Source: Raillietiella orientalis
Lineage: Eukaryota
NCBI GenBank assembly: GCA_036172245.1
Contig: JAYWIR010000049.1
Location: 62,001 to 126,000 of the forward strand
DNA length: 64,000 nt
Direction: 5' to 3'
Each line of letters opens with the position of its first letter. Position 1 is the first letter of the stretch. This document shows, one piece after another, positions 359 through 50,134 of the stretch. The position numbers were made by a program, and so were the translations under genes. A model generated the notes under the pieces. The model worked only from the letters and a program-made list of their open reading frames with translations, was not told the DNA's origin and ran no database searches.

Positions 359-630
359 GCCAAGTTGACAGCAGGGCTATGGGCTTCGCGTCTCAGGCAG
401 GTGGCAGATTCCATAATTAGCACAGAGCAGACATATGCTGTTCCCGGGCGATGTATGGATGCCAACCTCTTCTTCGCAAGCACATGGGTGCACCTGCAGA
501 GAAGAGAGTAGAAAGGGATAGGGAAAGTCAGCAACCCCACATTGGGGCCGCCAGCCGGGCTGGGAAGGGATCCCCGGGCGGGGAGGGGGGCCCTAGCGCT
601 CGCAGTCGATCTCCACAAGGCGTTCGATTT
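359..630 (+). pseudogene. RT fragment of a lineage-B element, trapped between the C1 and A1 insertions
   Basis: Translates AKLTAGLWASRL..EQTYAVPGR..NLFFASTW..ALAVDLHKAFD; homologous to 26240-26510 (-). Confidence 0.85.
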
Positions 631-843
631 TCACACGGATTACGCCGGGGCGTTTATTGTAAAATAAACTTCTACAAAGAAGTACGGTGGCTGGACCATT
701 GCTCCAGCCACGCACAAAGAAACAGAGCCGGCCGGGTCACCGGTTCGCGGACCGGTACGGTCCACCACGGCAGCAGGGGGAAGGGGGAAAAACAAAAAAC
801 AAAACAAAAAAGAAAAGAAAAGTTGGGAGGGTAAGGGAAGGGA

Positions 844-3800
844 TCACAGTTGCTGGTGGGGCCGTCGCATCCTTTGCAGAATGCCGGCAAGCTCCTTCTG
901 TATTCCTGGATCCAGGTGGTGACATCGGGACGCCCTCCTCAGGAACTGGGAGGCTGGCTGGATAGCACCCTGGTCGCGTTGTGCTCTCGTAGCCTTGCTC
1001 CAAGCAGTGACAATCCCGCGTAGGCAGCACAAAGCTGCTAACGAGGCCGCTGGCCGGAGGGCGTTGGCAAAAAGAGGGCTTTCAGTGCGCCCTGGGGTTG
1101 TCGCAGGGGATTCCGATGGCCGCGGCAAAGCGAAACCAAAGGGGCCGAAGTGCAACACAATCCACTAGCAGGTGGGGGAGGGACTACCGTTCCCCACACC
1201 TGACGCAATTAGGGTCCACCGCACCCCAGGTACAGTGGTGTCGGCGGGCGTTGCAGGAAAGTCCCCAGTGCTGCAACAGGAGAGCCGACTCCTGCCATTT
1301 TAAATGGAGGGAGGAAGTGTTCATGAGCACCGGGGGCCACTTCAGATGTTCAATGGGAACATCGAGCGGCGCGCCCCAGCGCAGAAGTCCATTGGGAGGC
1401 GTACTCGGGGTCGCAGCATCTGTTAACTGGCCCGTCTTCCACTCTCCTATCTTCTTCTCCTTTCCGGAGATTGTTATTGTAACCACCCACTTCGCCGCAA
1501 CATCGCTGTTCCGATCTTCCATCAGGGAGGGCAGCGCAGCAGCGAGGGGGGTTCTTCCTGCCCACGCTCTCTTCTTTGGATCCTCCAGGATCTCGCAGAG
1601 CGTGCAACTTCTATAACCCCCAAACAGGAACCTTCGTTCCTGTTGGGAGCGTTGCATGCCGAACTGTCCCCACGTTCGGACGGTTTCCTGCAACCAGGCA
1701 CTACCGTTCAACGGGCGACAGGTGAGCAATCCTGGGTTTTTCCGATACAGCGCAGCCACCCTCCGTAGCTGGAGTCCGCATCGGTTGACGCGGCGACGGA
1801 GTGCAAGAAACGACGTCAGTCCCGTCTTGCCGGTGGTTTGCTGGAGAAGGAGACGTGCAGGGACGCACCAACAGGTGCACCACAACTCTAGAACGAGTGC
1901 CGACAAGCATAACTGGAGCTGAAGCTCCAGCCGCTATAGCGACAGGAGGCCCAGACTACCATCCCGACGAGGAGCTCACAAGTCCTTTAAGCGGACTCGG
2001 GCCCTCCCGTTGCACCAAAGAGCGATACGGAGGAGGTCCTTTGTCCGCTCTTCAATCCTCTCTGTGGGGGGTCAAACAAAAAGCAAGGGGCGGAGGAGAA
2101 GAGCCGCGAACGTGTTCCAAACCGCGGCCCGTTCGGGCATGAAAAACCTGCCGCCACGGAACGGGCTGATCACCGTCTCTACTTTTTGAAGGCAGCCGGA
2201 CCACGCTTCCGCGGGGGAGTAGTCCCCCAACGGCACACCAAGGTACTTGAAGTACCTCACCGTGGGGATCCCCAAATGGACCCAGTCCTGCTGCCCTGCC
2301 CACGCCGCACCAACTGGCATCACGGACGACTTCGCCCTGTTCACCGTAACTCCCGTTTCCCGATGCAGCAGGTCGAAGGACTCCTCGACCGCCGCAGCCG
2401 GGGTATACATAGGGAGCAGCAGCGGAAGGTCGTACGCGTATGCTGAAACGGCCGGCGTACCGGCACAGTCGTGCGGCAAGTGCGCTAGTGTTCCCCTGTA
2501 CGCTCTCAGTACCAACTCAAAGTAAGTACTGAAGAGCAAGGGGCTCAGGCTGTCTCCCTGCCGGATCCCACGCCGCACCGGCACGCCGTGCACGGTCTGC
2601 CCGCTGAAAGTAACCTTGATGAGCGCGTCGCGCCAGCAGGAGCGCAGATAGGCCACTAATGATGCCGCGAAGCCCAAGCGTCCCAGAAGCTCCAGAAGGA
2701 GATTCTGGTCGACGCAATCGAATGCTTTTCGCAAGTCGATTGCGACCGCAAGGGCTCCCTCCCCCACCCGAGCATGCGATCATTTGTCGGCGCACGCACC
2801 GGAATTCCGGCTGCCCCCCATGCTCCTTTCATGTTGGAGCTCTAGCGAGGTGGAAGCGTGGAACAGGTTCGCCTCCATGCTTCGCCCGGGAACAGCACAT
2901 GTCTGTTCCGGGCTGATGAGGATGTTGGCAACCCGTCCCAGACGCTCTGCTTAAACCTTAGCCAGCAGCTTTACGTCAGCATTCACTATTGTGATGGGAC
3001 GCCAGTTGTTCATGCTCCTCAGATCCTTTCCCTTAGGGAGGAGCCGCACCTTTGCCGAAAGAAACAAGGCGGAAACGTCACCTGTTTCGCGTATCAGCAA
3101 GGTGAGTTGCTGTACCAGGGGGGTAAGCTCAGCCGCGAAAGTTTGATAAAACTCCGCGGGCAGGCCGTCCTCCACTGGAGCCTTTCGCCTCTTGAGCTTT
3201 CCGATGGCCGAGAGGATCTCGTCCATCGTGAAAGGCTTGTCGAGGGTCTTTCTCTGCTCCTCCCCGATCGCGAAAGCGCCTTCCAGAAGCAGGAGTCGTA
3301 AGATGTTCCTCTCCGAAGGTGCCCTGGCATACAGGGAGGAGTAGTAACTCCGCAGCAGGCCGCAGATTTGGGCAGGTGCCGAGAGCTCCTGGCCCTGATC
3401 GTCCATTAAGCCGGCCGATCCGGAATGCGAGGCTTGCCTCTCGGCTCCCGCTTTCTATTCCGCCAGCCTGCGGATGTCGGGAATCCTGGCGTAACGGCGA
3501 GCCTGCAGGTAGGCTCGTTCGTTACGGACTCCGGTCCCAAAACTCGTAGGTAGGCGGTGCAGAGGGAAATGGACGCAGAACTCCTGGACCGACCGCTTGA
3601 AGCGGTCCCAATCTTGGAGTGTCCGCAGCCTGGAGCTCCGTATGAACGTGCGGAGATGTTCCGCCGCGTCAGGGAGCTTCAGTCATTCCCCTGGGAGACG
3701 CCACGCTGACGGGGGGGGTCCCTGTCGCGCGGATGGATCTCGAGGACAAGCGGGCGATGGTCGGACAGCTCGCACGGTAACTTGCCGCGATAGCCCACGC

Positions 3801-4420
3801 GAGGGCACAGGTGCTCGTCAAGAAACACGTGGTCAATGCTGTCTTCCATCCCCGGTGCACTGGCCAACAAATTACAGGTGTGCACCGCCATGCACACCTC
3901 GTTGACCAGGTCACGCTCGGGATTGTGCCCATCTGGTTTCAGGCGAACGTTGAAATCGCCTGCAACCAGATGGGCATTCCGCACGCCTGCTTCGGTGAGC
4001 CAGTCTCGCTAAGGGCAAGAAAAACTCTTTCCTCGCTTTCCTGTTCATCAGGTCCTTGCCGCTCGGTGCGTACACGTTCGTGACGATCAGATCGATCGAG
4101 TCGGACCACCTGAGAGTCAGCTGGCCTACACGATCGTGATCGTCGAACCGTACGCCGTGAGCCGCGGTCTCGACGGCTGGCCGAAGCAGCTAGGCGACAC
4201 CGCAACTTTTCGTACTCCCACACATGTACCATAGCCGTCCTCCGGAGATCCGTTCGATCTCTAGCGCTTGTTCTGCAGAGATCACGTGGATCTCCTGCAG
4301 CAGCGCAAGGTCGTAGGAATCCAGAAGGGCGGATATGTCTCGTCTTCTGCCGGCGTCTGTCATGCCGTTCACGTTTCAAACGGCGATGCGGAGACGACGG
4401 CGGGAGGAGATTCCCGGCAT
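844..4420 (-). pseudogene. A1 ORF2, APE endonuclease-RT-CCHC (broken)
   Basis: Fragments carry NVNG/LLQEIH, GDFN, SDH, KAPxEDGLP, NWRPIT, DLRKAFD, QGDSLSP, YAYD, KYLG and CVRCGER..H..C. Confidence 0.9.
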
Positions 4421-4434
4421 TACTGCTGGGAAGA

Positions 4435-6087
4435 TTAAGGTGTCGGGGAGCCCTCCTCTTGCGAGGCGGGCAAGATGTCCATGGGGGTTTCGGCCTTCTC
4501 AGGCACCTGAGGCACCTGTTCGGCCTCCACCCCCTCCATCTCCTCCGTGTCCGTGCGTGGGAGTCTCTCGGGCGACGGGTGCCGAGAGTTTCCCACGCTC
4601 ATGGCACCCTCGCTTGCGGAAGCCATCTCTTCCCCTTCGCTGGGGAGACGAGCTTCCTTGGCTTTGTAGACTTACGTCCAGCCTTCTTGCAAGGTGCCGT
4701 GGAAACGGAGTCTGCGTTTCCGGCCGCCACCTCGGGGTCGGAAGTGTGGGACTCCTGAGGGGAGGCCGGACTCCTTACGGCCTTCTTGCCAGCCATGCAG
4801 AGTTCTGGCTGCACCGAAGCTACCAGCTCCTCTGAGGCTCGCACGAAGGCTACGTCATCGATGGTGGTGTCGATGACGGACGCCGCCGCCGGCTCGCTCC
4901 CCTCGCTGTTGACTGTGTCAACAGAGGGGAGGTCGTCGGAAGCAGTCAGGTCTTTCCGGCAGCGTTCGGCAACATCGTGAACGCGTTCGACACTGACCCT
5001 GCACTCTTTAATAATCGCGCTACCCTGCTCTTTCTGCTTCTGTTGCTAGGCGATTTTCTTTTCCATCCTCCTCTTCTTCTTTGATTCTATGGCCGTTGCC
5101 ACTTGCCACCCAGTCTCCTGACCGGCTTCCTCAACTTTTTGGCGTTGGCCGCCGGGGTCTCGGGTGCGGCCTGGGTCTTGGGCGCGGGTGGCACAGCCTG
5201 CGCGGCAGCTTTCGCCGCCAGCCTTTTCTGCAGAAACCGGGCGCGTTTTTTAAGGTTTCTCTTGGAACCCACCCGCACTGCGACTTTTGGGCACACCTTC
5301 CTCGTGTGGCCCATTGTGCCGCATACTTGGCACTGCACATTGGGACACCTCTTTTTGAGGTGGCCCGACGTATTGCAGAAGCCACAGTATTTCGGCTTCC
5401 CCACATACCAGAGGTCGACGGTTTCGCCTTCGACCACCAGTTTGTGGGAAGAGTGGAGCCCTCCCGAACGGTCACGCGGGTAGCAGTGAGGCCGTGTTGG
5501 AGCCACGTGTAGTCCTCGAAAGGACTTACTTTCGTCCACTGCGCGTGGACCGTTCCTAACTGTTCCAAAGCGGCGCGACCCTGTTCTTCGCGCATTCGCG
5601 CGGTGACGCCTAACAGGTGGAACACCATGCTGCAGTCCGCCGTAGTGGGGAGGAGCCTGCGCGTCCCCATCACAAAGGGGGTTTTAAGCAGTCGTTGGGC
5701 CAGCTCTGCATGTTTGCAGATGACCTCAACGTACTGACCCTTGCTGCGGATGGTCATAGCGCTGAGCTCCTCCTCTTTCACATCGAGAGCGCGTATGCCC
5801 TTCGAGAAGGCACGCGCGCTCTCTAAAGAATATAAATTGCCTACCTTGTAGAACATAGAGGGGTTGTACCCCTCCTCTACATAGGCCCACAATTCCGCTG
5901 CGGCTGCAGGCGATGACGCCGTCTAAACGGCGCTCCACGCCCGCACTGCAGCATGAACCGATTTTGTAAAGGCGGATGCCTCCACATCCACCGCCACCGG
6001 GGGCGACGTTGCCACCGCCCCCTGGCTCTTCATCGTTTCTGAGGGCGGCGTTACCCCCTGGCCATCCCTGGTGGTCGCGTCAGGCAT
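4435..6087 (-). pseudogene. A1 ORF1, gag-like nucleic-acid-binding protein (frameshifted, stops)
   Basis: CGFCNTSGHLKKRC and CQVCGTMGHTRKVC knuckles (ORF 5087-5539); colinear with 29752-31407. Confidence 0.85.
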
Positions 6088-6197
6088 CGCTGCCTGATCG
6101 ACCACCGAGCCACACGACGCTTGCACTGGGATAGACTTTCTGGCACGAGGAGAACCGAGAAAACACGTCCACCCTGTAGCACGCAAGGCGGTCGATT

Positions 6198-8264
6198 GCG
6201 TAAACCAAAAGCTGCTTTTGGAGCTTATGGAACGCCTAGGGTTCCCTGCACATCTCCTGATGTATTTGCGCGCTTGCTGGCGCCACGCGCTAATCTGCAG
6301 CACTTTCAGCGGCTGCCGGGTGTATGGTATTCCCGTGCGTAGGGCATCCGACAGGGCGACAGCTTGAGCCCGTTGCTCTTTAGCATCTTCGTTAAGTTGG
6401 TGCTGAGAGCATACAGGGTGAACTTGGCCCCCTTGCCGAGCTCGTGCCCCGGCACGCCCGCCGCAGCAGCGTACGCCGACGATCTTCTGCTCTTGTTGCC
6501 AATGTCATCCTCGGCAAAGGCGGTCGGAGACTTCTTCGATCTGCGCAGCCGCGGGACCGGACTGCAGGTTAACAGCGCGAAGTCGTCGGTTGTGCCAATA
6601 GGTGCGGCGTGGGCAGGGCAGCAGGACTGGGTCAGTCTGGAGATCCCCACGGAGAGGTGCTTCAAGTACCTTGGTGTGCCGTTGGGGGACTACTCCCCTG
6701 CGGAAGCGTGGTCGAGCCGCCTCCAAAAAGTCGAGACGGCGATCGGCCCGTTCCTGGAAGGCAAGTTTCACTTGCCGGAACGGGCCGCGGTTTGGAACGC
6801 CTTCGCGGCCCCTATTTTCCTCCTCTTGCTTTTTGTTTGCCCCGCCACCATGGAATCGACGAAGAAGACAAAGGACCTTTTCCGTATCACCCTTTGGGGC
6901 AAGAGGAGGCCCCGAGTACCTCTGAAGGACTTGTGCGCTTCGCGTCGGGACGGCGGTCTTTACCTCCTGACGCTGGAGCGCGTGGAGAAGCAGCTGCAGT
7001 GGCGAACCCTCGCCATCGCAGCGAAGATGTGGAGCACCCCTTGGTGCACTCCGGCCCGCCTCCTGGCCAGCCGTGTGTCCCGATGCGATGGACTCGCATC
7101 TTTTCTTGTGAGCCGTTGCCGGAAGATGCAAAGATGCGGCCTACTGATCGGGCGCATGGCAACATTTGCCAAGGAGAACAGCTGGATGGTTTGCTGCCCC
7201 GCCAACTCCCCCGCCTAGCTGGAGGAGAATATTGGAACGTGTTCAGCGGTTAAGCAGAGGAGCCACGAAACGTGGAATCGTCTCCGATGCAGCCCCTACG
7301 CCCGCTGCACGCTGCGGAATCTCCTGGAGAGTCCAGCATGATGCACGTGGGCAGAGACGATTTGCCTTGCTACGGCGCTGCCCTTCCTGAGAAGGGCACT
7401 TCACAGCTCTAGGACGCCAAGGTGGCTAGTATGCTGCTGCATCGAGGGAAGCGAGAAGTTGATCAGCGGCTGGACAACAGGAGAACTGGTTGACGCCACG
7501 AACCCGAGCGTCCAGCCGCGAGGATTATTAAGATGGGGCGAGCTGCTCGCCATCCCCAGGGATGAGCTGAAGTGGCTCCCGGTAATGAAGGAATCCAGGA
7601 TCCTGCCCCTCAAGTGGCAAAAGTCGGCGTTGCTTTTGTTGCACTGGGGTCTACCCTGCAACGCGCGCCGCTTCCACTGGGCGAGGGGAGCTGTGGATCC
7701 TGCGTGTGGCAGGTGCGGGGAGCGGGAGTCGCTTCCCCACCTTATTGTGGATTGTGCTGCCCTCTGACCCCTTTGGGAACGGTTCGGGATCACCCTCGGT
7801 CTCCCTACAGGCAGCACCCCCAGGTACGTTCTTCGGCCCCTCTTCGTGGAGGACGCACTACAGCCCGCCGCAGCCATCGCAGCCTTGTGCTGCGTCCGTG
7901 GCAACGTGGCGGCATGGAGCGACGCCAACAACGAAGGAGTAGGTCCACAGGCGAGGTATGTCATCTTGTATGCCCAGCGCTTCATGCGAAGAGCTGCCGG
8001 ATGGCCCCAACTGGGGAATATGCAGACAGACCTCGAGGGCTTCGTAGGACGGATGGGCCCTTCTCATAGCGACCAGTGATCCCTTCCCTGCCCTCCAGCT
8101 TCTTTTTGTTTGTTTGTTTTTATTTTTCTTTTTGTCTTATCCCCATCCTCCTTCGCTGTCGAGGAGTGCCACGCCGGGCTGCGTTCCGGTGTCCGGACAG
8201 GTCCTGCGTCTACGGCCGTGGTGGGGCCTCGTACCACGCATGTAGGGTTTACGTACGTAGGTGA
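6198..8264 (+). mobile_element. 3' half of a lineage-B element (B1): RT C-half, CCHC, 3' UTR. The first ~230 nt are G-type and the terminal hairpin is deleted.
   Basis: ORF 6364-7218 has YADD and KYLG; stop at TGATCCCTT 8077; UTR matches 24152-24360 and 41239-41445. Confidence 0.85.
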
Positions 8265-11004
8265 CAACGCCGAATCCCCGGGGCAGACGTTGTACAGGGA
8301 ACTGTTCGCAGAACTCCCGGCCCGAGTCCTTAAATAGGACCCAATGCGCGAGACTCTGGAGGGTGACGGCTCGCAGGAATTCGCGAAGATGTTCTTCCGC
8401 TCCTGAAAGGCGCGTGCAGTCCCCTGGCATACGCCAATCCCTGGATGGCGGTCCCTTGTCGCGCGGGCGCATCTCGAATAATAACCGGGAATGGTCCGAC
8501 AGCGTCGATTTTAAGTGTCCCTCGTTTTCCGACCCGTGTGCACAGGTCTTCGTCGAGGAAGACGTCGTCCACGCTGCTGACCATCCCGCTTATTTCTGTC
8601 AACAAGTTGCGCGCCCGCATGGCGTCACACAACTCGTTGATCGCCTTCCCCTGTGCTCCGGGCTGAGCTGAGAGCAGACGGACGTTGAAATCCCCTGCTA
8701 TCAGATGCGCCTTTCGCACGTCCGAGTCCACCAGCCATTCGCGCTTCAAGGTTTCCAGTAACGCGTTGCGCTGCTGGTATCCCTGTTTACCGCTAGGAGC
8801 TTACACATTGGTGACGATGAGGTCGATCGAATCGGACCATCTGAGAATCAGTTGGCCGATCCGTCCGTCGTCTCCAAAGCGCACGCCCTTCACGGCCGCG
8901 TTAATGGCTGGCTTTAGGAAGAACGCGACCCCCCAAGTGTTGCGGGCGCCGCATCGCCAGTACAACCGCCCTCCCGCGATCCTTTCGATCTCCTGGGCGT
9001 CTTTTGCGGTGATCACATGGATCTCCTGCAAAAGCACCAGGTCGAAATCTCGCACGGTGGCGGCTGTATCTCGTCTGTTTCCGTCGTCGCGCAGCCCGTT
9101 AACATTCCAACTGGCCGCGTGGATCCGACGGCGACAGGCGAGTCCAGGTGTTATTCCTGGGAACCTGGCGGTGGTGCTCCCGCCACCTTTTGGGGCGGGT
9201 CGCTGGACGGGGTTGGCGTCTTGCCGACCAACTCCCCATCCTTCTTACGTGCCGACGTCTCCGGCTGCCCGTGCGAAGGGAGTGTTGCTCGTACCTGTTG
9301 GCCCACATCCATTGGTGTGGGTGGTTCAGGTTCGGCGGTTTCAGAGGGCATTGCTGACCCCTGGTTACCCTCCTCCATTGGAGTCTCCTCCTCGTCGGCT
9401 TCCGCACGTGGGTGATGCCCGAATTGGGCTCCCACGCTGCCATCCACTGGTTCCTCCACCATTAAATCCCCCTCGCGCGGAGGCGGATTGCACCTTCGGG
9501 GTTTCTGGGATTTTCGCCCCGCTTTCCTTGGTGGTGCTTCCGCAGAAGAGGATGCACTTCCGGCCTCCAGGTCCGACTCACCTGCGGGGGCCACTTTAGC
9601 CGCTGCCGGCCTACGCAACCCCTTTCGCGAAGGGTTCTCGCGTTCGGCAAGCGTTGCCGCAAGCTCATCGGCGGCCTTCTCGAAGGCTGCGTCCTTGGTT
9701 TCGGCGATTTGGTCGTCCGGCTGACCCTCTTCGCAAGCAGGGGGTGGGTTTTCGCGCGCATTCGTCGCGGCGGGAAAATCGATCGAAGCCGTATCGCCTC
9801 CGGTGGTGTCGACGGGAACGTCAATGGGCTCCAGCGTAACCGTGCATTCTCGGAGAGTTTTTACGCGCTACACGGATTGAGCTTTGGTTCCGGCCGCCGC
9901 CTTCTCTCCTTTCTTCGGGACATGCTTGTCTTTTTTCTCTTTTTTGGCTTTGACTAGCTGCCAGCCCTGTTCTCCCTCTGCGGTTTCGGGAAGATTTTTC
10001 TCCGATGCCGCGCTTGGAGCTTGGGTTATTGGCAGCTTTTCTCGGCCAGTTTCACGCTTTTCCAATTTTTCTTTCCCCGCGCGTTTCCCTTGCGCCTTTT
10101 TGGCGGCCGAGCAAATTGGGGTGGGGCGTTTAGGGCACACGCGACGGACGTGTCCCTTCTCCCTGCACTAGTAGCATACGATGTTTGGGCACCACTTTCG
10201 GATGTGTCCGACCGCATCGCAGTAGCCGCAATATCGTGGCTTGCCCGCATACCAGAGGTCTACCGCTTCTCCCGCGACCTCAAGTTTGTGGGGTAGCTTC
10301 GCTTCGTCTTTTGGGGTTACGCGTGCCGCGGCGAGGCCCCCGAAGTGGCGTCCGTAGCCCTCAAAGATTGTGGGCTTCGGCCACAGCGCGTGTACGTCCC
10401 CGTACTTACTTAATTCTGCTTTTACGGCAGTGCGCGTCATGCGCTTGGATATTCCTGTCAAGTGGACAACTACCGAGTGGTCCATTGACACCGGGAAGAT
10501 CTTACGGCCGTCCATGATCAGCGGGGTATTTATAAGGCGATCGGCTAGGCTGATGCTCTTGCACACCAGCTCAACCCGCTGCGCCCCGCTAAGCACGCAC
10601 AGACCTTCCAGATCTTCCTCACGGACATTAGCATATTGAAGTGCTCTGCTAAAAGAGCGCGCCGTGTTTCCTTCAAACAAAGGGCCTACCTTGTATATAA
10701 ACGATAACTTGTATTCAGAGGCCCGATAGGCGGCTTCCTCGGCCATGGCCTCCGCACAGGGGGCGGCGACCATTTCACTCCAAGTCTTCGCCGGCTGCGA
10801 AGACGTTCCAAGGACTATAGCCCCCATAGCTGTAGGTCTTGTGGAAGGACTTGCCTCCCCACAACTACATCCATCGCGGTGTCCTCTGGCACGGCTGCCA
10901 TAGGACACCGACGACTCACACTTTACGCCTGACTACACTAAAAACTCCGGTTGCTTCCCAGACAAGCGCTGGCGGAGCGACCAAAAAACACGTCCACTCG
11001 CCAA
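8265..11004 (-). mobile_element. 5' half of a B-like element (B2): ORF1 (~10901-9151) plus EN, cut at RLPRGFG
   Basis: GGACGTG at 10989-10995; CGYCDAVGHIRKWC knuckle; WNVNG, LLQEIH, GDFN; ends at REFCEQFPVQRLPRGFG. Confidence 0.85.
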
Positions 11005-11018
11005 GGGATTTGGCGATG

Positions 11019-27490: not shown

Positions 27491-27491
27491 A

Positions 27492-29641: not shown

Positions 29642-29675
29642 AGTCGACCGCCTTGCGTGCTACAGGTTGGACGTG
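29640..29675 (+). promoter_or_regulatory. Putative internal Pol II promoter: Inr-like GCAGTC plus DPE-like GGACGTG at +28
   Basis: A at 29642 lies 27 nt before GGACG at 29669. GGACGTG (once GGATGTG) is found at all 9 clear 5' ends. Confidence 0.5.
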
Positions 29676-29751
29676 TTTTCTCGGTGCTCCTCGTGCCAGG
29701 AAGCCTCCCCCAGTGCAAGCGTCGTGCGGTTCGGTGGTCGATCAGGCAGCG

Positions 29752-31407: not shown

Positions 31408-31421
31408 TCCTCCCAGCAGTA

Positions 31422-34986: not shown

Positions 34987-35200
34987 TCCCTTCCCTTACC
35001 CTCCCAACTTTTCTTTTCTTTTTTGGTTTGTTTTTTGTTTTTCCCTTTTCCCCCTGCTGCCGTGGTGGACCGTTCACGTCTGCGAACCGGTGACCCGGCA
35101 GGCTCTGTGTTTCTTCGTGCGTGGCTGGAGCAATGGTCCAGCCACCGCACGTCTTTGTAAAAGTTATTTTGCAATAAACGTCCCAGCGAAATCCGGGTGA

Positions 35201-38902: not shown

Positions 38903-41224
38903 TCGATTGAAATCTCCCGTTATCAGCTGAGCGTTCCGCACGTTCGTGTCTGCCAGCCAGTCACGCTTTAGGGATTCCGGCAAGCTGGTGCGGTCGCTGT
39001 ATCTCTGTTTACCGCTGGGTGTGTACACATTCGTGACGATCAGTTCGAGCGAGTCGGATTAGCTGAGAATTAGCTGACCGACCCGAACGTCGTCATCGAA
39101 GCGCACGCCCTTCACGGCAGCGTCAATGGCCGGCTTCACGAAGAACGCGACCCCGCAGATGTTTCGGAGGCCGCACCGCCAATACAACCGGCCTCCCGCG
39201 ATCGTCTCGATCTCCTGGGCGTCTGCCGCGGTGATTACGTGGATCTCCTGCAGCAGGGCCAGGTCGAGCTCACGCAGGGTGTCGGCCGTATCTCGCCTGT
39301 TACTGTCGTCGCGCAGCCCGTTGACGTTCCAACAGGCGGCGCGAATCCGACGGCGACTGGCGAGCCCAGGTGTTACCTCTAGCAAGATGGCTATGCGGCG
39401 TCCGCCACCTGTTGGGGCGGGATGCTAGGTGGAAGAGAAGGGCCAGGCGCTGCATGCACCTGGTTCATCTCCTTCATGGGTAACGGTGCTTCGAGCGGGT
39501 CACCCTCAGGTGGGGTGGCGCCCACCTGTTGGCCCTCCTCCATGTGGGTGGGCTGTTCAGGCTCGGCGACTGCATGCAGGACTTCGCTCCCCCGCTCACC
39601 CTCCTCCATGGGAGTGGCCGGCTCGACGGCTTCGAGCGTGTGAGTTCCCCCTCCGGAATTCCCACGCTAACGCTACCTTCCTGCTTCTTTTCCTCGTTGG
39701 TGGAGGGGAGGCACCTCTTGGGTTTCTGGGACTTGCGTCCCGACATTCCTGGGGGGTGCCTCCAAGGAGGAGAATGCGCTTCCGGCCCCCAGGTCCAACT
39801 TACCTGTGGGGGCCTTTTTCGCGGGAGCCGGACTTCGCACGGCCTTGCGCGAGGGGTTCTCACGCGCGGCCAGCGTGGCCGCGAGCTCCTCCGCCGCCTG
39901 AGCGAACGCGGCGTCCTCGGCTTCGACCGCCGCTATTTCGCGCGGCTCACTTTTTGTGTAAACAGAGGGTTCGCCGTTGCGAACCTCGGGCGCGGCGGAA
40001 ACGGCGAGGGAAGGCTCGTCTCCCGTGTGGCAGTCTCGGGAACGGCTATGCGCTCCAGTTCCACCGTACAATCCCGCATGGACTTGGAGCGCGGCCCAGG
40101 ATTTTTCGCCTTGCCTGCTGCCTTTTTTTCCGCTTTCGCGGGTTCCGCGGGGGAACCTCTTTCTCCTTCCTGGCTTTGACCAGCTGCCAGCCGTCTTTTA
40201 CTTCCGCGTCTTCGGAAGGTTTTTTTTCCTACGCCTGTGTGGGAGGTACAGGGACTATCGGCTGCTGCCGGCTAGTATCTCTTTTTGGTCTTTCGACCAA
40301 TGTTCCGCGTTTTGCATGTGCTTTCTTTGCAGCAGGCGGCATCGAAGTGGTGCGTTTAGGGCATACGCGGCGCACGTGGCCCTTCTCCACGCAAACGTGG
40401 CACACAATGTTCGGGCACCGCTTGCGCAAGTGTCCTACTGCATTGCAGTAGCCAAAGAAGCGGGATTTCCCCACGTACCATAGGTCTACGATTTCGTCAT
40501 TGACCTCTAGTTTGTGGGGAAGCCCACTCTGTTTCACCGTCACGCGCGCGGCGGCCTGCCCTCCGAAAAGGCTATCGTAGCCCTCGAAGATTGTGGCCTT
40601 TGGCCATAGCGCGTGAACATCGCCATATTTTCTTAACTAATCACCAACCGCAGACCGCGTCATGCGGCTGGTGATCCCTGTCAGATGGACCACTACGGAG
40701 CGGTCCATCGTGACTGGTAGGATCTTGCGTCCGTCCACGTTCAGCGGGGTGGTTATCAAGCTTTGCGCCAAGGTGATGTCCTTGCAGACAACCTCGATGC
40801 GCTGTCCCCCGCTCAGCACGAACAGGCCGTCAAGATCTTGTTCTTTTACTCCGGCATTTTGCAGCGCCCTCAAAAAAGCGCGTGTAGTTCGCCCGTCAAA
40901 GAGATTGCCTACCTGGTACACCAGGCTGGGTTTGTACCCAGCTGCACGGTAGGCTGCCATCTCGGCCATGGTTTCCGCGTTCGGCGCGGCCACCATGGCG
41001 CTCCATCTCCTCGCCTTGGGTTGCGAGGGAGATTTCGGGGCGGGCGCTTCTCATTCTGTAAGCTGTGGGGGTGGGTAAGCCTCTCTCACAACTACCTTCA
41101 TCGCGGTGTCCTCAGGCATCGCTGACATCGGACACCAACGATGTTCCACACGAACACACACAAATAAAAAACCGCTCCATGTCGACTCACTCGGGAGCAA
41201 AGGAAAAACACGTCCACTCGCCAA
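38903..41224 (-). mobile_element. Lineage-B element B4, 5' part (ORF1 plus EN up to GDFN)
   Basis: Close homolog of 50135-52455; GGACGTG at 41209-41215. Confidence 0.88.
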
Positions 41225-41238
41225 GGGAGTCGGCGTAG

Positions 41239-43596
41239 TCACCCGGGTACGCCCGAGGCGTTTATTAATAAACTCTACATGCGTGGTACAAAGCCCCTTC
41301 ACGGCCGTAAACACAGGACCTGTCGGGACAGCGGGACGCAGCCCGGCGTGGCACTCCCCGACAGCGAAGGGGGATGGGGATAAGACAAAAAGAAAAAATA
41401 AAAAGAAACAAACAAAAAGAATTTGTAGGGCAGGGAAGGGATCACTGGTCGCTGTGAGGAGGGGCCATCCGTCGAACGAAGCCCTCGAGGTCAGTCTGCA
41501 TATTCCCCAGTTGGAACCATCTGGCAGCTCTTCGCAAGAAGCTTTGGGCGTACAACATGACATCCCTCGCCTGTCGACCCACTCCTTCGTTGTTGGCGTC
41601 GCTGCATGCCGCCACGATGCCACGGACCCAGCACAAGGCTGCGATGGCTGCGGCTGGCTGCAGTGCGTCCTTCACGAAGAGGGGCCGAAAAACGTCGCTG
41701 GGGGTGCTGCCCGTAGGGAGCCCAAGGGTCGTCCCGAACCGTTCCCAAAAGGGTCCCAGGGCAGCACAATCCACAATAAGGTGGGGAAGCGACTACCGCT
41801 CCCCGCACCTGCCACACGCAGGATACACAGCTCCCCTCGTCCAGTGGAAGCGGCGCGCGTTGCAGGGTAGACCCCAGTGCAACAAAAGCAACGCCGACTC
41901 TTGCCACTTGAGGGGAAGGATCCTGGATTCCTTCATCACCGGGGGCCACTTTAGCTCATCCCTGGGTATGGCGAACAGCTCGCCCCATCTTAATAATCCT
42001 CGCTGCTGGACGCTCGGGGTCGTGGCGTAGGCCAGTTCTCCTGTTGTCCAGCCGCTGATCAACTTCTCGCGTCCCTCGATGCAGCAGGAGACTTGCCACC
42101 TTGGCGTCCGGGTGCTGTGAAGTGCCCTCCTTACGAAGGGCAGCGCCGTAGCTGGGCAGGTCGTCTCTGCACACGTGCATCTTGCTGGACTCTCCAGGAG
42201 ATACCGCAGCGTGCAGCGGGCGTAGGGGCTGCATCGGGACGATTCCACTTCTCTTGGATTCTCTGGTTAACCACTGCCCACGTTCCAATATTCTCCTCCA
42301 GCCAGGCGGGGGAGTTGGCGGGGCAGCAAACCATCCAGCTGTTCTCCTTGGCCAATGTTGCCATGCGCTTGAGGAGTAAGCCGCATCCTCGCATCTTTCG
42401 GCAACGGCTCAGAAGAAAGGACGCGAGTCCATCGCACCGGGGCACACGGCTGGCCAGGAGGCGGGCCCTCGTGCACCAAGGGGTGCTCCACATCTTCGCT
42501 GCGATGGCAAGGGTTCGCCACCGCAGCTGCTTTTTCACGCGCTCCAGCGTCAGGAGGCCAAGACCGCCGTCCCGACGCGGAGCGCACAAGTCCTTCAGTG
42601 GGACTCGGGGCTTCCCCTTGCCACAAAGGTTGATACGGAGGAGGTCCTTCGTCCTCTTCTTGGATTCCAAGGTGGGGGTGCGAACAAAAACAAAGGGCGG
42701 TGGATGGGGGCCGAGAAGGTGTTCCAAACCGCGGCCCGTTCCGGCAAGTGAAACTTGCCTTCCAGGAACGGGCCGATCGCTGCCTCGACTTTTTGGAGCC
42801 AGCTGGACCACGCTTCCGCAGGGGAGTAGTCCCCAAACGGCACACCAAGGTTCTTGAAGCACCTCGCCGAGGGGATCCTTAGACGGAACCAGTCCTGCTG
42901 TCCTGCCCAAGCCACACCTATTGGCACAACCGACGACTTCTCCCTGTTAACCTGCAGTCCGGTCCCGCGGCTGAGCAGAACGAAGAAGTCTCCGACCGCC
43001 TTAGCCGGGGAGGACATTGGCAACAAGAGCAGAAGATCATCAGCGTACGCTGCAACGGCGGACGTGCCGGGGCAGAAGCTCGGCAATGGGGCGAGGGTCA
43101 CCCTGTACGCTCTCAGCACCAACTCAAAGTAGGTGCTGAAGAGCAGGGAGCTGAGGCTATCGCCCTGCCTTATGCCCCGCCGCCCCGGCATGCCATGCAC
43201 CTTGTGACCGCTGAATGAGACGGTAATTATCGCATTCCGCCAGCAAGAGCGCAGGTAGGAAATCAGGAAGGGTAAAATGCCCATGCGACCCAGGAGCTCC
43301 AAGAGTAGTTACTGGTCTACACAGTCTAACGCTTTGTGGAGATCGACTGCGAGCGCTATAGCCGCCTTATCCGCCCGAGATTTCCTTCCCAGCCCGGCTG
43401 GCGGCCCCAATGTGGGGTTGCCGACCTTCCCTATCCCTTTCTTCTCTCTTCTCTGCAGGTGCACCTATGTGCATGCGAAGAAGTGGTTGGCATCCATACT
43501 TCGCCCGGGAACAGCATAAGTCTGCTCCGGGCTAATTATGGAATTGGACACCTGCCCCAAACGCGACGCATACAGCCCGGCAATCAACTTGGCGTC
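41239..43596 (-). mobile_element. Lineage-B element B5, 3' part, head-to-tail with B4, cut at DAKL
   Basis: QGDSLS, YADD; terminus at 41239-41266; begins at GAC GCC AAG TTG. Confidence 0.85.
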
Positions 43597-46500
43597 CGAG
43601 CTGTCCGACCATCGCCCGCTGGTCCTCGTAGTGCATCTGCGCGACAGAGGACCCCCTCGTCAGCGTGGCGTCTACCAAGGGACTAAGTGAAGCTCCCGGA
43701 CTCGGCGGAACTCCTCCGCACGTTCATACGGAGCTTGAGGCTGTGGACACTCCAGGATTACGACCGCTTCAAGTGGTCGGTCCAGGAGTTCTGCGACAAG
43801 TTCCCTCTGCACCGCCTACCTACGGGTTTTGAGACCGTGAACTTTAACGAACTTGCGTACCTGCAGGCCCGTCGTTACGCCAGGACCCCCGACATGCGCA
43901 GGCTAGCGGAACACAAAGCGAAAGCACAGAACCAAGCCTGGCAGTCCGGATCGGCCAGCTTGCTGGACGATCAGGGCCAGGAGCACTCGGCACCCGCCCA
44001 AATCCGCGGCCTGCTGCCGAGTTACTACTCCTCCCTGTATGCCAGGGCACCTCCGGAGAGGAACATCTCACGACTCCTGCTTCCAAAAGGCGCTCGAGCG
44101 ATCGGGGAGAGGCCGAGAAAGACCGTCGACCAGCCTTTCACGATGGACGAGATCGTCTCGGCCATCGGAAAGCTCAAGAGGCGCAAGGCTCCAGGGAAGG
44201 ACGGCCTGCCCGCGGAGTTTTACCAAACCTTCGCGGCTGAGTTTACCCCCCTGGTACAGCAACTCACCTTGCTGATAGGCGAAACAGGTGACGTTCCCGC
44301 CTTGTTTCGTTCGGCAAAGGTGCGGCTCCTCCCTAATGAAGGAGATCTGAGGAGTATGAACAACTAGCGTCCCATCACAATAGTGAATGCGGACGTCAGG
44401 TAGCTAGCTAAGGTTTGGGCAGAGAGGTTGTGACGGGTTACCAACATCTTCATCAGCTTGGAACAGACATATGCTGTTCCCGGGCGAAGCATGGAGGCAA
44501 ACCTGTTCCACGCTTCCACTTGGCTAGAGCTCCTACATGAAAGGAGCTTGGGGTGCAGCCAGAATTCCGGTGCGTACGCCGGCAAGACGTTGGATGGTCG
44601 GGTTGGGGAGGGAGCCCCTGCGGTCGCAATCGACTTGCGGAAAGCGTTCTCTTGCGTCGACAAGACTCTCCTTCTGTAGCATTTGGAAAGCTTGGGCTTC
44701 CCGGCCTCATTAGTGACCTATCTGCGCTCCTGCTGGCGCGATGCGCTCATCAATGTTACTTTCAGTGGGCAGACCGTGCACGGCGTGCCGGTGCGGCGTG
44801 GGATATAACAGGGAGACATCCTTAGCCCTTTGCACTTCAGTACCTACTTTATGTTGGTACTGAGAGCGTACAGGGGAACTCTGGCGCACCTGCCGCTCGA
44901 CTGTGCCGGTACGCCGGCCGTTTCAGCGTACGCGGACGACCTTCTGCTGCTGCTCCCTATGTCCACCCCGGCTTTTTGGGGAACTGGACTTACGGTGAAA
45001 TGGGCGAAGTCGTCCGTGATGCCAGTTGGTGCGACGTGGGCAGGGCAGCAGGACTGGGTCCGTCTGGAGATCCCCACGGTGAGGTACTTCAAGTACCTCG
45101 GTGTGCCGTTGTGGGACAACTTCCCTGCGGAAGCGTGGTCCTGCTGCCTCAAAAAAGTAGAGACGGCGATCGGCCCGTTCCGAGGCGGCAGGTTTTTCCT
45201 CCCTGAAAGGGCCGCGGTATGGAACACGTTGGCGGCTTCTCTCCCGCATCCTGCTTTTTGTTTCACCCCCGCAGAGAGAATTCAAAAGCGGAAAAAGGAC
45301 CTCCTTCGTATCGCCCTTTGGGGCAACGAGAGGGCCCACGTCCGCTTAAAGGACTTGTGCGCTCCTCTTTGGGACAGGGGTCTGGGCCTCCTGACGCTGG
45401 AACGGCTAAAGCTTCAGCTCCTGTTCCGATTGTCGGCACTAGTTCCAGAGTTGTGGTGCACCAGTTGGTGCGTCCCTGCACGTCTCCTTTTCCAGCATGC
45501 CACCGGCAAGACGAGACTGACCTCGTTTCTTGCACTCCGTCGCTGCGTCAGCCGATGCAGACTTCAGGTACGGATGGTGGCTGCGCTGTCACGGAAAAAC
45601 CCAGGATTGGTCACCTTTCGTCCTTTGAACGGTAGTGCCTGGTTGCAGGAAACCGTTCCAACGTGGTTACAGTTCGGCATGAAACGCTTTGAACAGGAGC
45701 GAAGGTTCCTATTTGGGGGTCGCAAAAGTTGCACGCTTTGCGACTTCCTGGAGGATCCAAAGAAAAGAGCGTGGGCAGGAAGAATCTCCATCGCTGCTGC
45801 GCTGCCCTACCTAATGGAAGATCTGGACAGCAATGTTGCAACAAAGTGTGAGGTTACAGTAACAATCTCCGGAAAGGAGAAGAAGATAGGAGAGTGGAAG
45901 ACGGGCCAGTTAACAGACGCTGGGACCCCGAGTACGCCTTCCAATGGACCTCTACGCTGGGGCGCGCTGCTCGACGTTCCCATTGAACGTTTTAAGGGGA
46001 TCCCGGTACTAATAAACACCTCCACCCTTCCCTTAAAATGGCAAAAGTCGGCTCTCCTGTTGCAGCACTGGGGACTGCTGTGCAACGCCCGCCGAAACCA
46101 CTGGACCTGGGGAGCGGTAGACCCCAATTTCGTCAGGTGTGGTGAACGGGAGTCCTTCCCCCACCTGCTAGTGGATTGTGTTGCCCTTCGGCCTTTTTGC
46201 TTTCGCTTTGCCGCGACCATCGGAATCCCCTGCGGCAACCCCAGGGACGCACTGAAAGCTTTCTTCGTTGCCGACGCCCTTCGGCCAGCGGCCTCGTTAG
46301 AAGGTTCGTGCTGCCTACGCGCGATCGTCAGTGCTTAAAGCAAGGATACGGGAGGACAACGCAACCAGGGTGCCATCCAGCCAGCCTCCCAGTTCCTGAG
46401 GAGAGCGTCGCGATGGCCCCTTCTAGATCCAAACATGCAGCAAGAGCTTGATGGCATCCTGCAAAGGATGCAACGACCCCACCAGCAACTGTGATCCCTT

Positions 46501-46710
46501 CCCGTACCCTCCCAGTGTTTTCCTTTCTTTTTGTTTTGTTTTTTGTTTTTTCCCTCTTCCCCCTGCTGCTGTGGTGGACCGTACCGGTCTGCGGACCGGT
46601 GACCCGGCAGGCTCTGTGTTTTTTCGGGAGTGGCTGTAGCAATGGACCAGTCACTGTACGTCTTTGTGAATGTTTATCTTAAAATAAACGCCCCGGCGAA
46701 ATCCGGGTGA
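43597..46710 (+). mobile_element. Lineage-A element A4, lacking its 5' part (starts at EN SDH)
   Basis: ORFs 43687-44367 and 44830-46338 (YADD); terminus at 46683-46710. Confidence 0.88.
46683..46710 (+). terminator. Representative conserved 3' terminal signal: AATAAA plus CCCGG-loop-CCGGG-TGA
   Basis: 13 copies, one at each intact 3' end. The function is inferred. Confidence 0.7.
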
Positions 46711-47372
46711 AAATCGAACGCCTTGTGGAGATCGACCGCTACCGCTAAGGCAACCGGCGCTTCTTCAGGCCAAATGCAACGACGCCTAGCTCTGGCAGCC
46801 GCAAATGCGGTTGCCTGGCATTCGTGCTCCACGCAACGTTGCAGCTCGAGCCACGTGCGCGCGAATAACAGATTCGCCTCCATAGAACGCTCGGGAAAAG
46901 CGCAAGACTGCTCCGGACTTACCACGGATCCAGCGATCCTGCCAAGGCGCGGGAGCCACATCCTAAAGAACAACTTGACGTCCTCATTCACCAAGGCGAT
47001 GGGGCGCCAGTTGCTTAAATGGCGCATGTCTCCGCCTTTCGGCAAGAGACGCACCTTTGCTGGGCGAAACGAGGCCGGCACATTGCTCGTCTCTCGCATC
47101 AGCGCAGAAAGCCTAAGCACCAGGGGGATGAGTTCCGAGGCGAAGCACTGGATGAATTCCGCAGGCAGACCATCCTCACCTGGCACCTTGCGCTTCTTTA
47201 GGCCCGCTATGGCAGAAGACACTAGTTCCGACGTGAAGAGCAAGTCAAGAGTGGCGCGTTCCTCTTCGTCGTCAGCAGGGGAATTTGCCGGCAGAAGCAG
47301 CTTCGAGAGACAGCGTTCCGTCGGCTCCCTTGCATACAACGAGGAGTAGTAGCGCCTTAGCAGGCGGCGAAC
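46711..47372 (-). pseudogene. Lineage-E ORF2 fragment (E2), between the VRR and KAFD sites
   Basis: ORF 46674-47441 is homologous to 59510-60172. Confidence 0.85.
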
Positions 47373-47387
47373 GGCGGACGTTGAGTA

Positions 47388-49291
47388 AACTTTGAGTTGG
47401 TACTGGGAGCGTACAGGGGAACTCTGGCGCACCTGCCACATGAATGCGCCGGAACGCCTGCGGTTTCAGCATATGCGGACGACCTCCTGCTACTACTCCC
47501 TATCTCCACCCCGGCTTCGGCGGTCGAGAAGTTCTGCGACCTGCTGAATGGAGGAACCGGGCTTACGGTGAACAGGGCGAAGTCGTCCGTGATGCCAGTT
47601 GGTGTGGCGTGGGCAGGGCAGCAGGACTGGGTCCGTTAGGAAATCCCCACGGTGAGGTAATTCAAGTACCATGGTGTGCCGTTGGGGGACTACTCCCCTG
47701 CGGAAGCGTGGTCCGGCTGCCTCCAAAAAGTAGAGACGGCTATCGGCCCGTTCCGAGGCGGCAGCTTTTTCCTGCCTGAACGGGCCGCGGTTTGGAACAT
47801 GTTCGCGGCTTCTCTCCTCCGTTCCCTACCTTTTGTTTGCCCCCCCACAGAGAGGATCAAAAAGCGGACGAAGGACCTCCTCCGTATCGTTCTTTGGGGC
47901 AACGGGAGGGTCCGAGTCCGCTTGAAGGACTTGTGCGCTCCGCGTCGGGACTGTGGTCTCGGCCTCCTGACATTGGAGCGGCTGGAGCTGCAGCTCCAGT
48001 TCCGGATTTTGGCACTTGTCCCGGAGTTGTGGTGCACCTGTTGGTGCGTCCCTGCACGTCTCCTCCTTCAGCAAGCCACCGGCAAGACGGGACTTACGTC
48101 GTTTCTTGCACTCCATCAAAGCCGCATCAACCGATGTGGGCTTCAGCTACGGAGGGTGGCTGCGCTGACAAGGAAAAATCAAGGATGGATCACCTGTCTC
48201 CCCGCGAACGGTAGTGCCTGGTTGCAGGAAACCGTTCGCACGTAAGGACAGTTCGGCATGCAACCCTCCCATCAGGAACGAAGGTACCTGTTTGGGTGTT
48301 ACAGAAGTTGCACGCTCCGTGAGATCCTGGAGGATCCTAAGAAGAGAGCGTGGTCAGGAAGAACCCCCCTCGCTGCTGCGCTGGACTCCCTAGTGGAACA
48401 TCAGGACAGCGATGCTGCGGCGAAGTGGGAGGTTACAATAAAAATCTCCGGGAAGGAGAAGAAGCAGAGAAAGTGTAAGACGGGCCAGCTAACGGATGCT
48501 GCGACCCCGAGTACGCCTCCTAATGGACTTCTGCGCTGGGGAGCGCTGCTGGATGTTCCCATTGAACATCTGAAGTGGCCACCGATTCTTATGAACACTT
48601 TCATCCTCCCCCTAAAATGGCAAGAGTCGGCATTCCTGTTGCAGCACTGGGGACTCCCCTGCAACGCCCGTCGACACCACTGGACCTGGGGAGCGGTGGA
48701 TCCCAATTGTGTAAGGTGCGGGGAACGGGAGTCCCTCCCCCACCTCCTAGTGGATTGTGTTGCCCTTCGGCCCTTTTGGTTCCGCTTTGCCGCGGCCATC
48801 GGTATCCCTTGCAGCAACACCAGGGACGCACTAAAAGCCTTCTTCGTTGCCGACGCCCTGCGGCCAGCGTCCTCGATAGCAGCTTTGTGCTGCCTTCGTG
48901 GGATCGTCGCCGCCTGGAGCACGGCGACGGGAGGACCTAGCGATCAGGAAGCCATCCAGTGCGCCTCCGAATTCCTGAGGAGGGCGTCGCGATGGCCCCA
49001 CCTGGATGTTCAGAACAAACAAGAGCTTGTCAGCATCCTGAGAGGGATGATGCGGCCCCAGCAGCAACAGTGATCCCTTCACTTTTCCTCCCACCCTTTG
49101 TTTTTTTTTTTTGTCTAGTTTTTTTCTTTTTTCCCTTTCCCCTGCTGCCTTGGTGGACCGTAGCGGTGTAGAAACCGGTGAATTGGCAGGCGCCGTGGTT
49201 CTTAGCTTCTTGCTGGAGCATTACCACAGCCATTAATAATTTGTTTACAAAGTTTATTTTTTTAATAAACGACACGGAGAAATCCGGGTAA
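47388..49291 (+). mobile_element. A-subfamily element A5, 3' part
   Basis: YADD; CVRCGERESLPHLLVDC (ORF 48258-49073); divergent 3' UTR; terminus at 49264-49291. Confidence 0.85.
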
Positions 49292-50134
49292 AAATCGAAT
49301 GCCTTATGGAGGTCGACTGCGATTGCTAAGGCCCCCTTTCCCGCATGAGGGTCCCTACCCTGTGCCACTGGCGGCCCCAAAGTAGGGTTGCAAATTTTCC
49401 CTTTCCCTTCTTTCTTACTCCGCTGCGCGTGTATCCATGTGCTCGCGAAGAAGAGGTTGTCCTCCATGCTTCGCCCGGGAACAGCGTAAATCTGCTCCGG
49501 GCTAATTATGGAATTGGACACCTGCCCCAATCGCGACGCATACAGCCCGGCAATCAACTTGGCGTCCGTGTTTACAATCGTGATCGGACATCAATTGCAA
49601 AATTTCCTGAGGTCTCCTCTCCTCGGGAGGAGCCTCACTCTGGCTGACCGAAACGAGGCGGGAACATCGCCTTCGTCTCGGATTCACCTTGTCAACTCGA
49701 GCACCAGGGGGGCCAGCTCTTCCGCGAAACTCTGAAAGAACTCCACGGGCAAGCCGTCCTCCCCTGGCGCCTTACGCCTCTTGAGCCTTTTGATACCGGC
49801 GAGAATTTCGCCGGTAGTGGAAGGCTCATCGAGGCTTTCTCTCTCCTCCTCCCCTATCGCCACGGAACCACTCATGAGCAATCGCCGCGAAGCGTCTTGT
49901 TCGGGTGGTGTTTTGGCGTAAAGGGAGAAATGAAAACACCGCACGAGATTCCGTACCGCAGACGGGGACGAACGTTCCCGGCCCAGGTCATCCAGCATGC
50001 TGGCTGACCCGGATTGTCAGGCTTGTCGCTCGGCTCCGGCGCGGTATTCTGCCAGGCGACGGACACTGGAGTTCCTCTCGTGACGACGCGCGTGCAAATA
50101 CGCGCGTTGGTTGCGAGCCTCTTCGCCGAATCCC
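49292..50134 (-). pseudogene. B-like ORF2 fragment (B6), between the GFG and KAFD sites
   Basis: GFGEEARNQRAYL..KAPGEDGLP..DAKLIA..AVDLHKAFD. Confidence 0.85.

Follow-up and report, generated by a model that had tools for sequence, protein, structure and literature searches.

A LINE lineage of Raillietiella orientalis probably targets the reverse transcriptase motif A codons of other LINE lineages

In this study, we describe a lineage of long interspersed nuclear elements (LINEs), here called A, and its insertion sites in a 64,000-nucleotide (nt) stretch of contig JAYWIR010000049.1 of Raillietiella orientalis (contig positions 62,001 to 126,000, forward strand). This whole stretch is referred to as the window, and its positions are counted from its first letter. 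The window has a G+C content of 59% and contains no long clean genes. A Pfam family was recognised in 13 of the 134 stop-to-stop open reading frames (ORFs) of at least 158 amino acids (RVT_1 in nine, Exo_endo_phos in two, zf-RVT and zf-CCHC in one each). The remaining 121 gave no Pfam family, and no gene family foreign to LINEs was found among the 134. Used as a tblastn query, the ORF2 of the best-preserved element, E (936 amino acids; 58469-61276, minus strand, with one in-frame stop read as X), retrieves ORF2 pieces of several lineages on both strands over the whole length of the window, and the reverse transcriptase (RT) of the window elements aligns with structures of human L1 ORF2p (E-value 2e-35). 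The ORF2 pieces throughout, together with this alignment, identify the window as a eukaryotic nest of LINEs of the apurinic/apyrimidinic endonuclease (APE) type that are L1/Tx1-like. Indeed, the window is composed almost only of such elements, featuring an ORF1 with a zinc knuckle, an APE endonuclease and an RT. The tiled ORF2 fragments and the lack of other gene families among these ORFs correspond to a LINE-only nested cluster as known for Zepp.

A protein database search with the E RT returned one close match, an RT on a metagenome contig with 61% identity; the other matches reach at most 33%, counted over alignments covering at least half of the query. The nearest named relatives are animal RT proteins with zf-RVT and Exo_endo_phos (24-33% identity), and a search of a protein atlas returned generic RT clusters only. 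All lineages have a common 3' terminus, AATAAACGCCCCGGCG(4-6 nt)CCGGGTGA (e.g., 629-660, 57439-57470 and 18300-18335), which is not followed by a poly(A) tail and could fold into a short hairpin (CCCGG/CCGGG). They also have a common 5' start, GAGTG(C)GGACGTGTTTTT, with short target-like leaders in front.

A BLAST search of the window with a full copy of A (629-6196, minus strand, 5568 nt) yielded five copies with an identity of at least 84%, denoted A1 to A5 (Table 1), and the pairwise identity among the copies ranges from 81.4 to 90.5%. The lineage displays the features of an APE-type retrotransposon without long terminal repeats (non-LTR): an N-terminal APE followed by the RT in ORF2, a CCHC knuckle in ORF1, and 5'-truncation of some copies. 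In A3 the order of domains is ORF1 with CCHC motifs (in the ORF at 29963-30829), APE and RT, and A1 aligns with residues 2-932 of the E ORF2. The zf-CCHC Pfam match lies in a lineage sibling to A. The ORF2 frame of A1 is interrupted by 13 in-frame stops, and this copy is therefore dead. A2 is part of a chimera (10900-16242, minus strand) in which about 4.2 kb of A-like sequence passes into about 1.3 kb of B-like sequence; the switch lies near A position 4100-4250, in the RT block with the highest conservation. Lineages of the array do undergo recombination or template switching with each other. The break in A2 at E ORF2 residue 169 was considered as another target site and rejected, as it is an internal deletion at a TTGCA microhomology.

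The ends of A coincide with a conserved motif of the RT. A six-frame search of the window for tetrapeptides resembling K-A-F-D gave 10 sites, of which six read on as intact RT (...KAFDCVDQ.LLLELL...) and four (617-628, plus strand; 35203-35214, 46713-46724 and 49294-49305, minus strand) run directly into TTTCACCCGGATT... At these four occupied sites, the sequence right after the D codon, TTTCACCCGGATTTCGCCGGGGCGTTTATT..., is the lineage A 3' end in reverse complement. This 3'-end motif occurs four times in the window, with none expected from shuffles. An 18-nt target, CTCCACAAGGCGTTCGAT, adjoins all four A 3' ends with 0, 0, 0 and 2 mismatches, respectively; when up to three mismatches are allowed, it occurs at seven sites in the window versus 0.05 expected. 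Every visible end of A falls on one nucleotide, namely after the GAT of the K-A-F-D codons in the RT of a non-A element (four of four 3' ends and three of three 5' ends), and all five copies are antisense to their host. The full 5' ends (6196, 16241/2 and 29643/4) finish without exception with GCACGCAAGGCGGTCGA(T/C), and the host codons that normally come after KAFD follow, either TGCGTAAACC... or TACGTCGACC... An earlier interpretation made from the letters alone (the sequence-only reading) had A termini abutting the KAFD codons of B, D, G, E and B-like hosts, always in antisense. These counts bear it out, and its coordinates were right to within 1-3 bases.

The 3' junction, GTGAAA/ATCG (the slash marks the joint here and below), is identical in every copy that has a 3' end. 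Since the A 3' end, ...CCGGGTGAAA, is joined directly to ATCGAACGCC... and a variable A-run is absent, reverse transcription starts from a constant position. On the coding strand of the host the junction reads ...GCGTTCGAT/TTTCAC, which fits a nick after the GAT of the D codon and subsequent target-primed reverse transcription, an order of events that would place A in antisense. The chance of three further 3' junctions on the same base and strand of an element of about 5.5 kb is approximately (1/11000)^3, and chance coincidence of the junctions is excluded.

Table 1. Copies of lineage A, their host elements, the sequences at the 5' side of A, unoccupied target sites and the sister lineage A' in the window
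Feature	Position	Strand	Description
A1	629-6196	-	Full-length, 5568 nt; ORF1 with CCHC, ORF2 with APE and RT
A2	12342-16242	-	A-like from the 5' end to about A position 4250; A positions 1892-2232 deleted internally
A3	29643-35202	+	Full-length; 90.5% identical to A1
A4	43585-46712	+	5'-truncated at A position 2413
A5	47389-49293	+	5'-truncated near A position 3655-3674
A1 host, upstream fragment	357-628	+	B lineage; 89% identity to the unoccupied B copy at 26238
Last 24 nt of the A1 host upstream part	605-628	+	GTCGATCTCCACAAGGCGTTCGAT; encodes V-D-L-H-K-A-F-D and ends at the insertion point
A1 host, downstream part	6399-8306	+	B lineage, to the 3' end of the element
A2 host, downstream part	16243-18335	+	D lineage; begins with the codons after KAFD; sister of the copy at 22839 (98/97)
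A3 host, downstream part	27480-29642	-	G lineage
A3 host, upstream part	35203-38904	-	G lineage; corresponds to E ORF2 residues 2-588, ends at KAFD
A4 host fragment	46713-47380	-	E-like, ends at KAFD; 86-89% identity to the E copy at 59513
A5 host fragment	49294-50148	-	B-like, ends at KAFD
Target-like 17-18 nt at the A1 5' end	6179-6196	+	GCACGCAAGGCGGTCGA+T; same in A2 and A3 (3/3 matches, 0 mismatches)
G-type tract after A1	6197-6398	+	About 202 nt of G-lineage RT, in register, replacing the B host's own sequence
Unoccupied target, near-intact E element	59513-59530	-	1 mismatch (CGC for CAC)
Unoccupied target, B copy	26238-26255	-	2 mismatches
Unoccupied target, second B copy	43324-43341	-	3 mismatches
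Unoccupied KAFD site, D-related copy	22839-22856	-	4 mismatches to the 18-nt target
A' (sister lineage of A)	52795-55136	-	77% identical to A; 3' end antisense in the APE-RT linker, not at KAFD

The host elements were compared in maximum likelihood trees, built from the upstream 250 nt without the shared 24-nt target and from the downstream 800 nt (or 600 nt from +220). In the upstream tree, the A1 and A5 hosts fall within the B clade (99/99), the A4 host is sister to E (99/97) and the A3 host forms a separate G branch. In the downstream tree, the A1 host lies again in B, the A2 host groups with the copy at 22839 (I4, clade D; 98/97) and the A3 host with E (100/100). Support for these placements amounts to 95-100%, and host flanks from different clades share 44-72% identity; host lineages compared with each other are 45-79% identical. 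An approximately unbiased (AU) test rejects a tree in which the hosts are forced into one clade (p = 5.9e-58 for the four upstream flanks and 3.4e-23 for the three downstream flanks); this test was run after inspection of the trees, and the one-clade grouping was taken from the sequence-only reading, which had named it beforehand as its refutation. The A1 host is 89 and 86.5% identical to the two unoccupied B copies versus 78% to the A5 host, and because it is closer to the unoccupied copies, the two insertions in the B clade are separate events. For both A1 and A3 the two flanks come from one host lineage and are colinear with uninterrupted relatives, giving the picture of a filled versus an empty site. 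Independent insertions of A in at least four host lineages (B twice, D, G and E) are thus supported, in agreement with the supposition that the hosts belong to different RT clades. Within the window, independent copies consequently share the same nucleotide and orientation of a repeated target across four host clades, as is expected of a sequence-specific LINE.

The same trees bear on the idea that one ancestral insertion was spread by segmental duplication, with flanks that later diverged or were converted, or that the assembly is faulty at a conserved motif. Duplicated blocks are indeed present, as an inverted duplicate (16932-20697, plus strand, and 60170-64000, minus strand; 91% identical) runs across the point where a D-type 3' end meets an E-type 5' end, and recombinant elements exist as well. 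Yet, the flanks fall into four well-supported clades beside unoccupied relatives, a single host clade is rejected, the flanks diverge far more than the A copies do among themselves, and no homology exists between the host and the A end of any junction by which an assembler might have been misled. Taken together, we regard such a single origin as highly improbable.

At its 5' side, A carries an imitation of its own target. In the three full 5' ends a 17-nt sequence reads CACGCAAGGCGGTCGA, compared to CAC-AAGGCGTTCGAT in the target, and the same two differences recur in the B, D and G hosts; the target copy has therefore been inherited with A instead of arising afresh at every insertion. The repeat of the target that flanks A measures 13-17 nt, with the 5'-side copy being the same variant in three hosts. 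Beside A1, donor-type sequence extends further into the host. Over the ~202 nt directly behind A1, the identity is 92.5% to the A3 flank (G) versus 66.7% to B, while beyond this point it is 91.8% to B versus 64.6% to G. Across the sites at which G and B differ, the G state is found at nearly every site, followed by a sharp change to B. The presence of about 200 nt of G-type sequence beside A1 in a B host indicates that A1 was copied from an A in a G-type host together with that flank, and the 5' joint of A1 was closed in register inside a conserved stretch of the RT gene. In A2, the donor-type tract ends after 17 nt. The 17-nt target copy and the G-type flank of A1 together suggest that integration relies on homology of the donor flank, in the manner of R2 and its 28S sequence, and they agree with the role that PMC4494074 ascribes to cotranscription with the target. 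The insertions had earlier been put forward as evidence for real sequence specificity; their independence stands, but part of the apparent specificity may come from this homology in addition to the endonuclease.

The donor flank is also what would be left by homing at the DNA level, in which a break at an empty KAFD site, made by the A endonuclease or in any other way, is repaired from an A-occupied copy and the donor flank is co-converted in the fashion of homing introns, so that reverse transcription is not needed. Junctions in register, a full-length 5' end in three of the five copies, the G-type tract of ~202 nt that adjoins A1 in its B host, 3'-side flanks that are donor-like where the B and E relatives differ, and in-register lineage switches elsewhere in the array, such as the A2 chimera, all agree with such repair. 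On the other hand, A4 and A5 are 5'-truncated with non-homologous joints, which is a mark of target-primed reverse transcription. Moreover, homology on the 3' side does not exceed 24 nt between host lineages that are 45-72% alike, a poor repair substrate across a heterology of 5.5 kb, and the donor-type tract of A2 measures just 17 nt. DNA-level homing is therefore unlikely in our view, albeit the more credible of the alternatives considered.

Homology could also guide the choice of the site without any specificity of the endonuclease, if A RNA that reads through both ends into antisense RT sequence pairs with nicks or single-stranded DNA at the RT motif. The 5' target copy and the 200-nt donor flank are in line with this possibility, as are the 24 nt on the 3' side that are identical in three hosts and the statement in PMC4494074 that target-specific integration can gain in strength when an element is cotranscribed with its target. 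However, pairing alone would scatter the start points, whereas all four 3' junctions lie at one phosphodiester bond; A', which has a similar 3' end, sits at a non-homologous site; and unoccupied sites with 1-3 mismatches exist. We give this explanation little weight, slightly less than repair from an occupied copy.

Of those RT copies that include the site and do not belong to the A clade, five are occupied and four are unoccupied (22839, 26238, 43324 and 59513), and the A' site at ~54870 is likewise free. A's own site differs from the target at 6 of the 18 bases, and the changes in A and in the unoccupied copies mostly affect codon third positions. All four 3'-side flanks read CCA(C/T)AAGGC(G/A)TTCGAT, where the unoccupied E copy has CGC and both unoccupied B copies have AAA...GA(C). 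These shared bases reflect either a requirement of the endonuclease or donor sequence that has been copied there too. Escape by silent change looks possible from these comparisons and may also explain why A spares itself. The expectation that the motif is hard for a host to escape is accordingly doubtful, given that the unoccupied copies differ at 1-4 of the 18 bases and A at 6.

When the RT is aligned with human L1 ORF2p, AVAVDLRKAFD stands opposite IISIDAEKAFD, and the first D of the motif corresponds to residue 363 of 8c8j_A, and with an offset of +237 to residue 600 of the full-length 8sxt_A. We take Asp600 of human L1 ORF2p to be the catalytic residue of motif A. The cut lies six codons downstream of the residue aligned with Asp600, and the codon of this residue is included in the shared 24 nt. 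The idea that DLxKAFD holds the first catalytic Asp of the RT is supported as far as the alignment with Asp600 goes.

We propose that A is a sequence-specific APE-type (L1/Tx1-like) non-LTR retrotransposon with homology-assisted insertion, and that it targets the DNA that encodes D-L-H-K-A-F-D, in the region of RT motif A, within other LINE lineages of the array. We consider this explanation probable; it builds on direct observations, namely the anatomy of the element, the identity of the junctions, the spread of the hosts over different clades, the target copy common to the full 5' ends and the donor-type flank. The endonuclease of A would nick the host coding strand between ...AAGGCGTTCGAT and TGCG..., and from the freed 3' OH reverse transcription would be primed straight on the 3' end of the A RNA, which is conserved and hairpin-like (...AATAAACGCCCCGGCGAAATCCGGGTGAAA). 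No poly(A) tract would then be copied, and priming on the host coding strand would make A antisense. The A RNA or donor DNA would bring along host-derived sequence upstream of the A body, comprising at least the target copy of 13-17 nt and, for A1, about 200 nt of G-type sequence. The new end of the complementary DNA would anneal to the homologous RT sequence of the new host, upon which the 5' junction would be closed in register. The assignment of the cut to a particular protein, the position of the second-strand nick and the travel of the flank as RNA are the steps that we infer.

Several observations speak against this proposal. The sister lineage A' is found at a different site from A, and the counts of A ends cover five insertion events in one 64-kb window. 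All copies of A in the window are broken or dead. A2 has lost its 3' junction because of the switch to B-like sequence, and A4 and A5 are not continued by the downstream half of their own hosts, as A4 adjoins a B copy and A5 an E-like fragment. A genuine target-site duplication is inseparable from the copy that A carries. Finally, copying of donor sequence on the 3' side, if it took place, is not predicted by simple priming from a nicked target and would suit a DNA-repair route better.

Searches beyond the elements themselves complete the description of A. Rfam recognised no family at gathering score in the whole window, and the 5' end region of A3 gave two chance-level matches only, so that a 5' ribozyme is not indicated. 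Metagenomes were scanned with a degenerate 26-nt pattern of the A 3' end, without a match, and a scan with the RT part upstream of KAFD gave 20 loci, all distant (24-45% identity), among which there was no close relative and no usable junction. In a DNA sequencing run (X1), 13% of the sampled words were found, and 548 short contig pieces, mostly less than 95% alike, fell on 29601-49600. A 3755-nt X1 contig of a G-like element stops at 35204, beside the insertion point; we draw nothing from this stop, as contigs break at any repeat branch.

Transposons have been described as targets of LINEs of the Tx1 clade. According to PMC4494074, Tx1 resides in the DNA transposon Tx1D and the crocodilian Tx1-Mar in Mariner-N4_AMi, while the targets of Tx1-8_Crp and Tx1-4_AMi are LTR retrotransposons. 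Similar to these elements, A is an APE-type LINE with ORF1 and ORF2 of which the copies occupy one site of another multicopy mobile element, a likeness of anatomy and habit. What sets A apart from the Tx1-clade cases is a target that codes for a catalytic-core motif in sibling LINEs, is shared by at least four lineages of hosts and is entered in antisense throughout. Full-text literature searches, with many journals outside their coverage, found no report of a LINE targeting the RT motif of another LINE. When group I and group II introns home, they insert at a single conserved position of a gene and take donor markers from the flanks with them. A likewise enters one conserved gene site with transfer of a donor flank; unlike homing introns, it is a LINE without intron features that inactivates the host gene and is not spliced out.

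A further comparison is offered by R2 and by R1, which we group together as LINEs specific for ribosomal DNA (rDNA). As to the 5' end, PMC3774820 describes R2 RNAs in which as much as 36 nt of 28S sequence is retained and which give uniform 5' junctions, by a postulated annealing. Like R2, A has a single-nucleotide target, a precise 3' junction without variable poly(A), and target sequence at its 5' end. R2, however, cuts with an endonuclease of the restriction-like type, bears a 5' ribozyme and is transcribed together with the 28S gene, whereas A has an APE endonuclease and no ribozyme was found in it. Being antisense to the host gene, A, unlike R2, cannot ride on the sense transcript of its host. 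As regards the array as a whole, the Zepp elements of green algae form clusters built by nested insertion into existing copies, and the Zepp and ZeppL arrays consist mostly of 3' ends in tandem (both according to PMC8226300). The present array differs in having several full-length elements, antisense insertion at a defined codon, and several lineages. Sequence-specific non-LTR retrotransposons are known as a kind; new are the class of target, the entry in antisense, the spread across lineages and the visible transfer of a donor flank.

Other lineages of the array were also found at defined positions. The 3' end of A' (52787-52803) lies in an X-type element with the junction ..GGAATCTCCATTGAT/ACCCGGG, and closely related lineages such as A and A' seem to differ in target. 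The flank of A' (..ATCTCCATTGAT/) was considered as a decayed KAFD site; this was rejected, since by eye it reads as native linker sequence of the host element. The 5' end of lineage Y lies antisense in two hosts (356/357 and 55136/55137), at one and the same nucleotide of the N-x-D-x-K codons of the RT. The junction regions (348-367 and 55126-55145) read ...CACGTCCGC/ACGCCAAGTTG, and the hosts, i.e., the B host of A1 and A', belong to different lineages. The B copy at 43324 also starts at an N-x-D-x-K motif (43598), beside the truncated 5' end of A4. The G element that has A3 inside (38897-38918 and 27471-27490, minus strand) is a sense insertion in the APE G-D-F-N codons of a B-type element, with the joints GGGAGATTTCAATC / G 5' end ... 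G 3' end TAAATTTCAATC / TCCTTCTGG. These joints imply that a 5' half of type X (untranslated region, ORF1 and APE start) and a 3' half of type B make up one lineage. Directly after each of four B-type 3' ends (8306, 24155, 41225 and ~11016) stands an X-type 5' leader (ACGCCGA.TCCC...); two of these leaders go on as full X 5' halves, forming head-to-tail tandems, and two stop after ~45 nt. Element E (57439-62596, minus strand) has a near-intact look, with a 936-codon ORF2 in which a single in-frame stop lies between APE and RT. The sequence at 20698-21284, between an E-like fragment and a D-related copy, matches no lineage recognised in the window.

A wider reading of these positions, which we put forward tentatively and hold to be somewhat doubtful, is that of a guild of LINE lineages homing into each other's catalytic-motif codons (A at K-A-F-D, Y at N-x-D-x-K and G at G-D-F-N). 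Each would have a short target-derived leader before the shared 5' start GAGTGCGGACGTGTTTTT, allowing in-register stitching by homology. The targeting by Y and G is based on single or double events and provides leads only. If true, such mutual targeting would disable rivals and build a self-feeding, LINE-only chromosome domain, possibly of centromere type.

Site-specific LINEs are known to insert into rDNA, telomeres, small RNA genes, microsatellites and a small number of DNA or LTR transposons. A clear case of parasitism of a transposon on transposons would be a LINE that lands in the sequence coding for the polymerase active-site region of its competitors. As a target, the KAFD site is multicopy, renewed by the rivals' own activity and constrained by protein function, and each insertion of A kills a rival copy. 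The short target of 18-24 nt with a matching endonuclease could interest builders of targeted insertion tools. How the 5' junction is closed is the least understood step of LINE integration, and the donor-flank tract of A1 is evidence from nature that homology assists in it. For LINE-only islands such as Zepp-type clusters, targeting by A would offer a concrete mechanism of growth.

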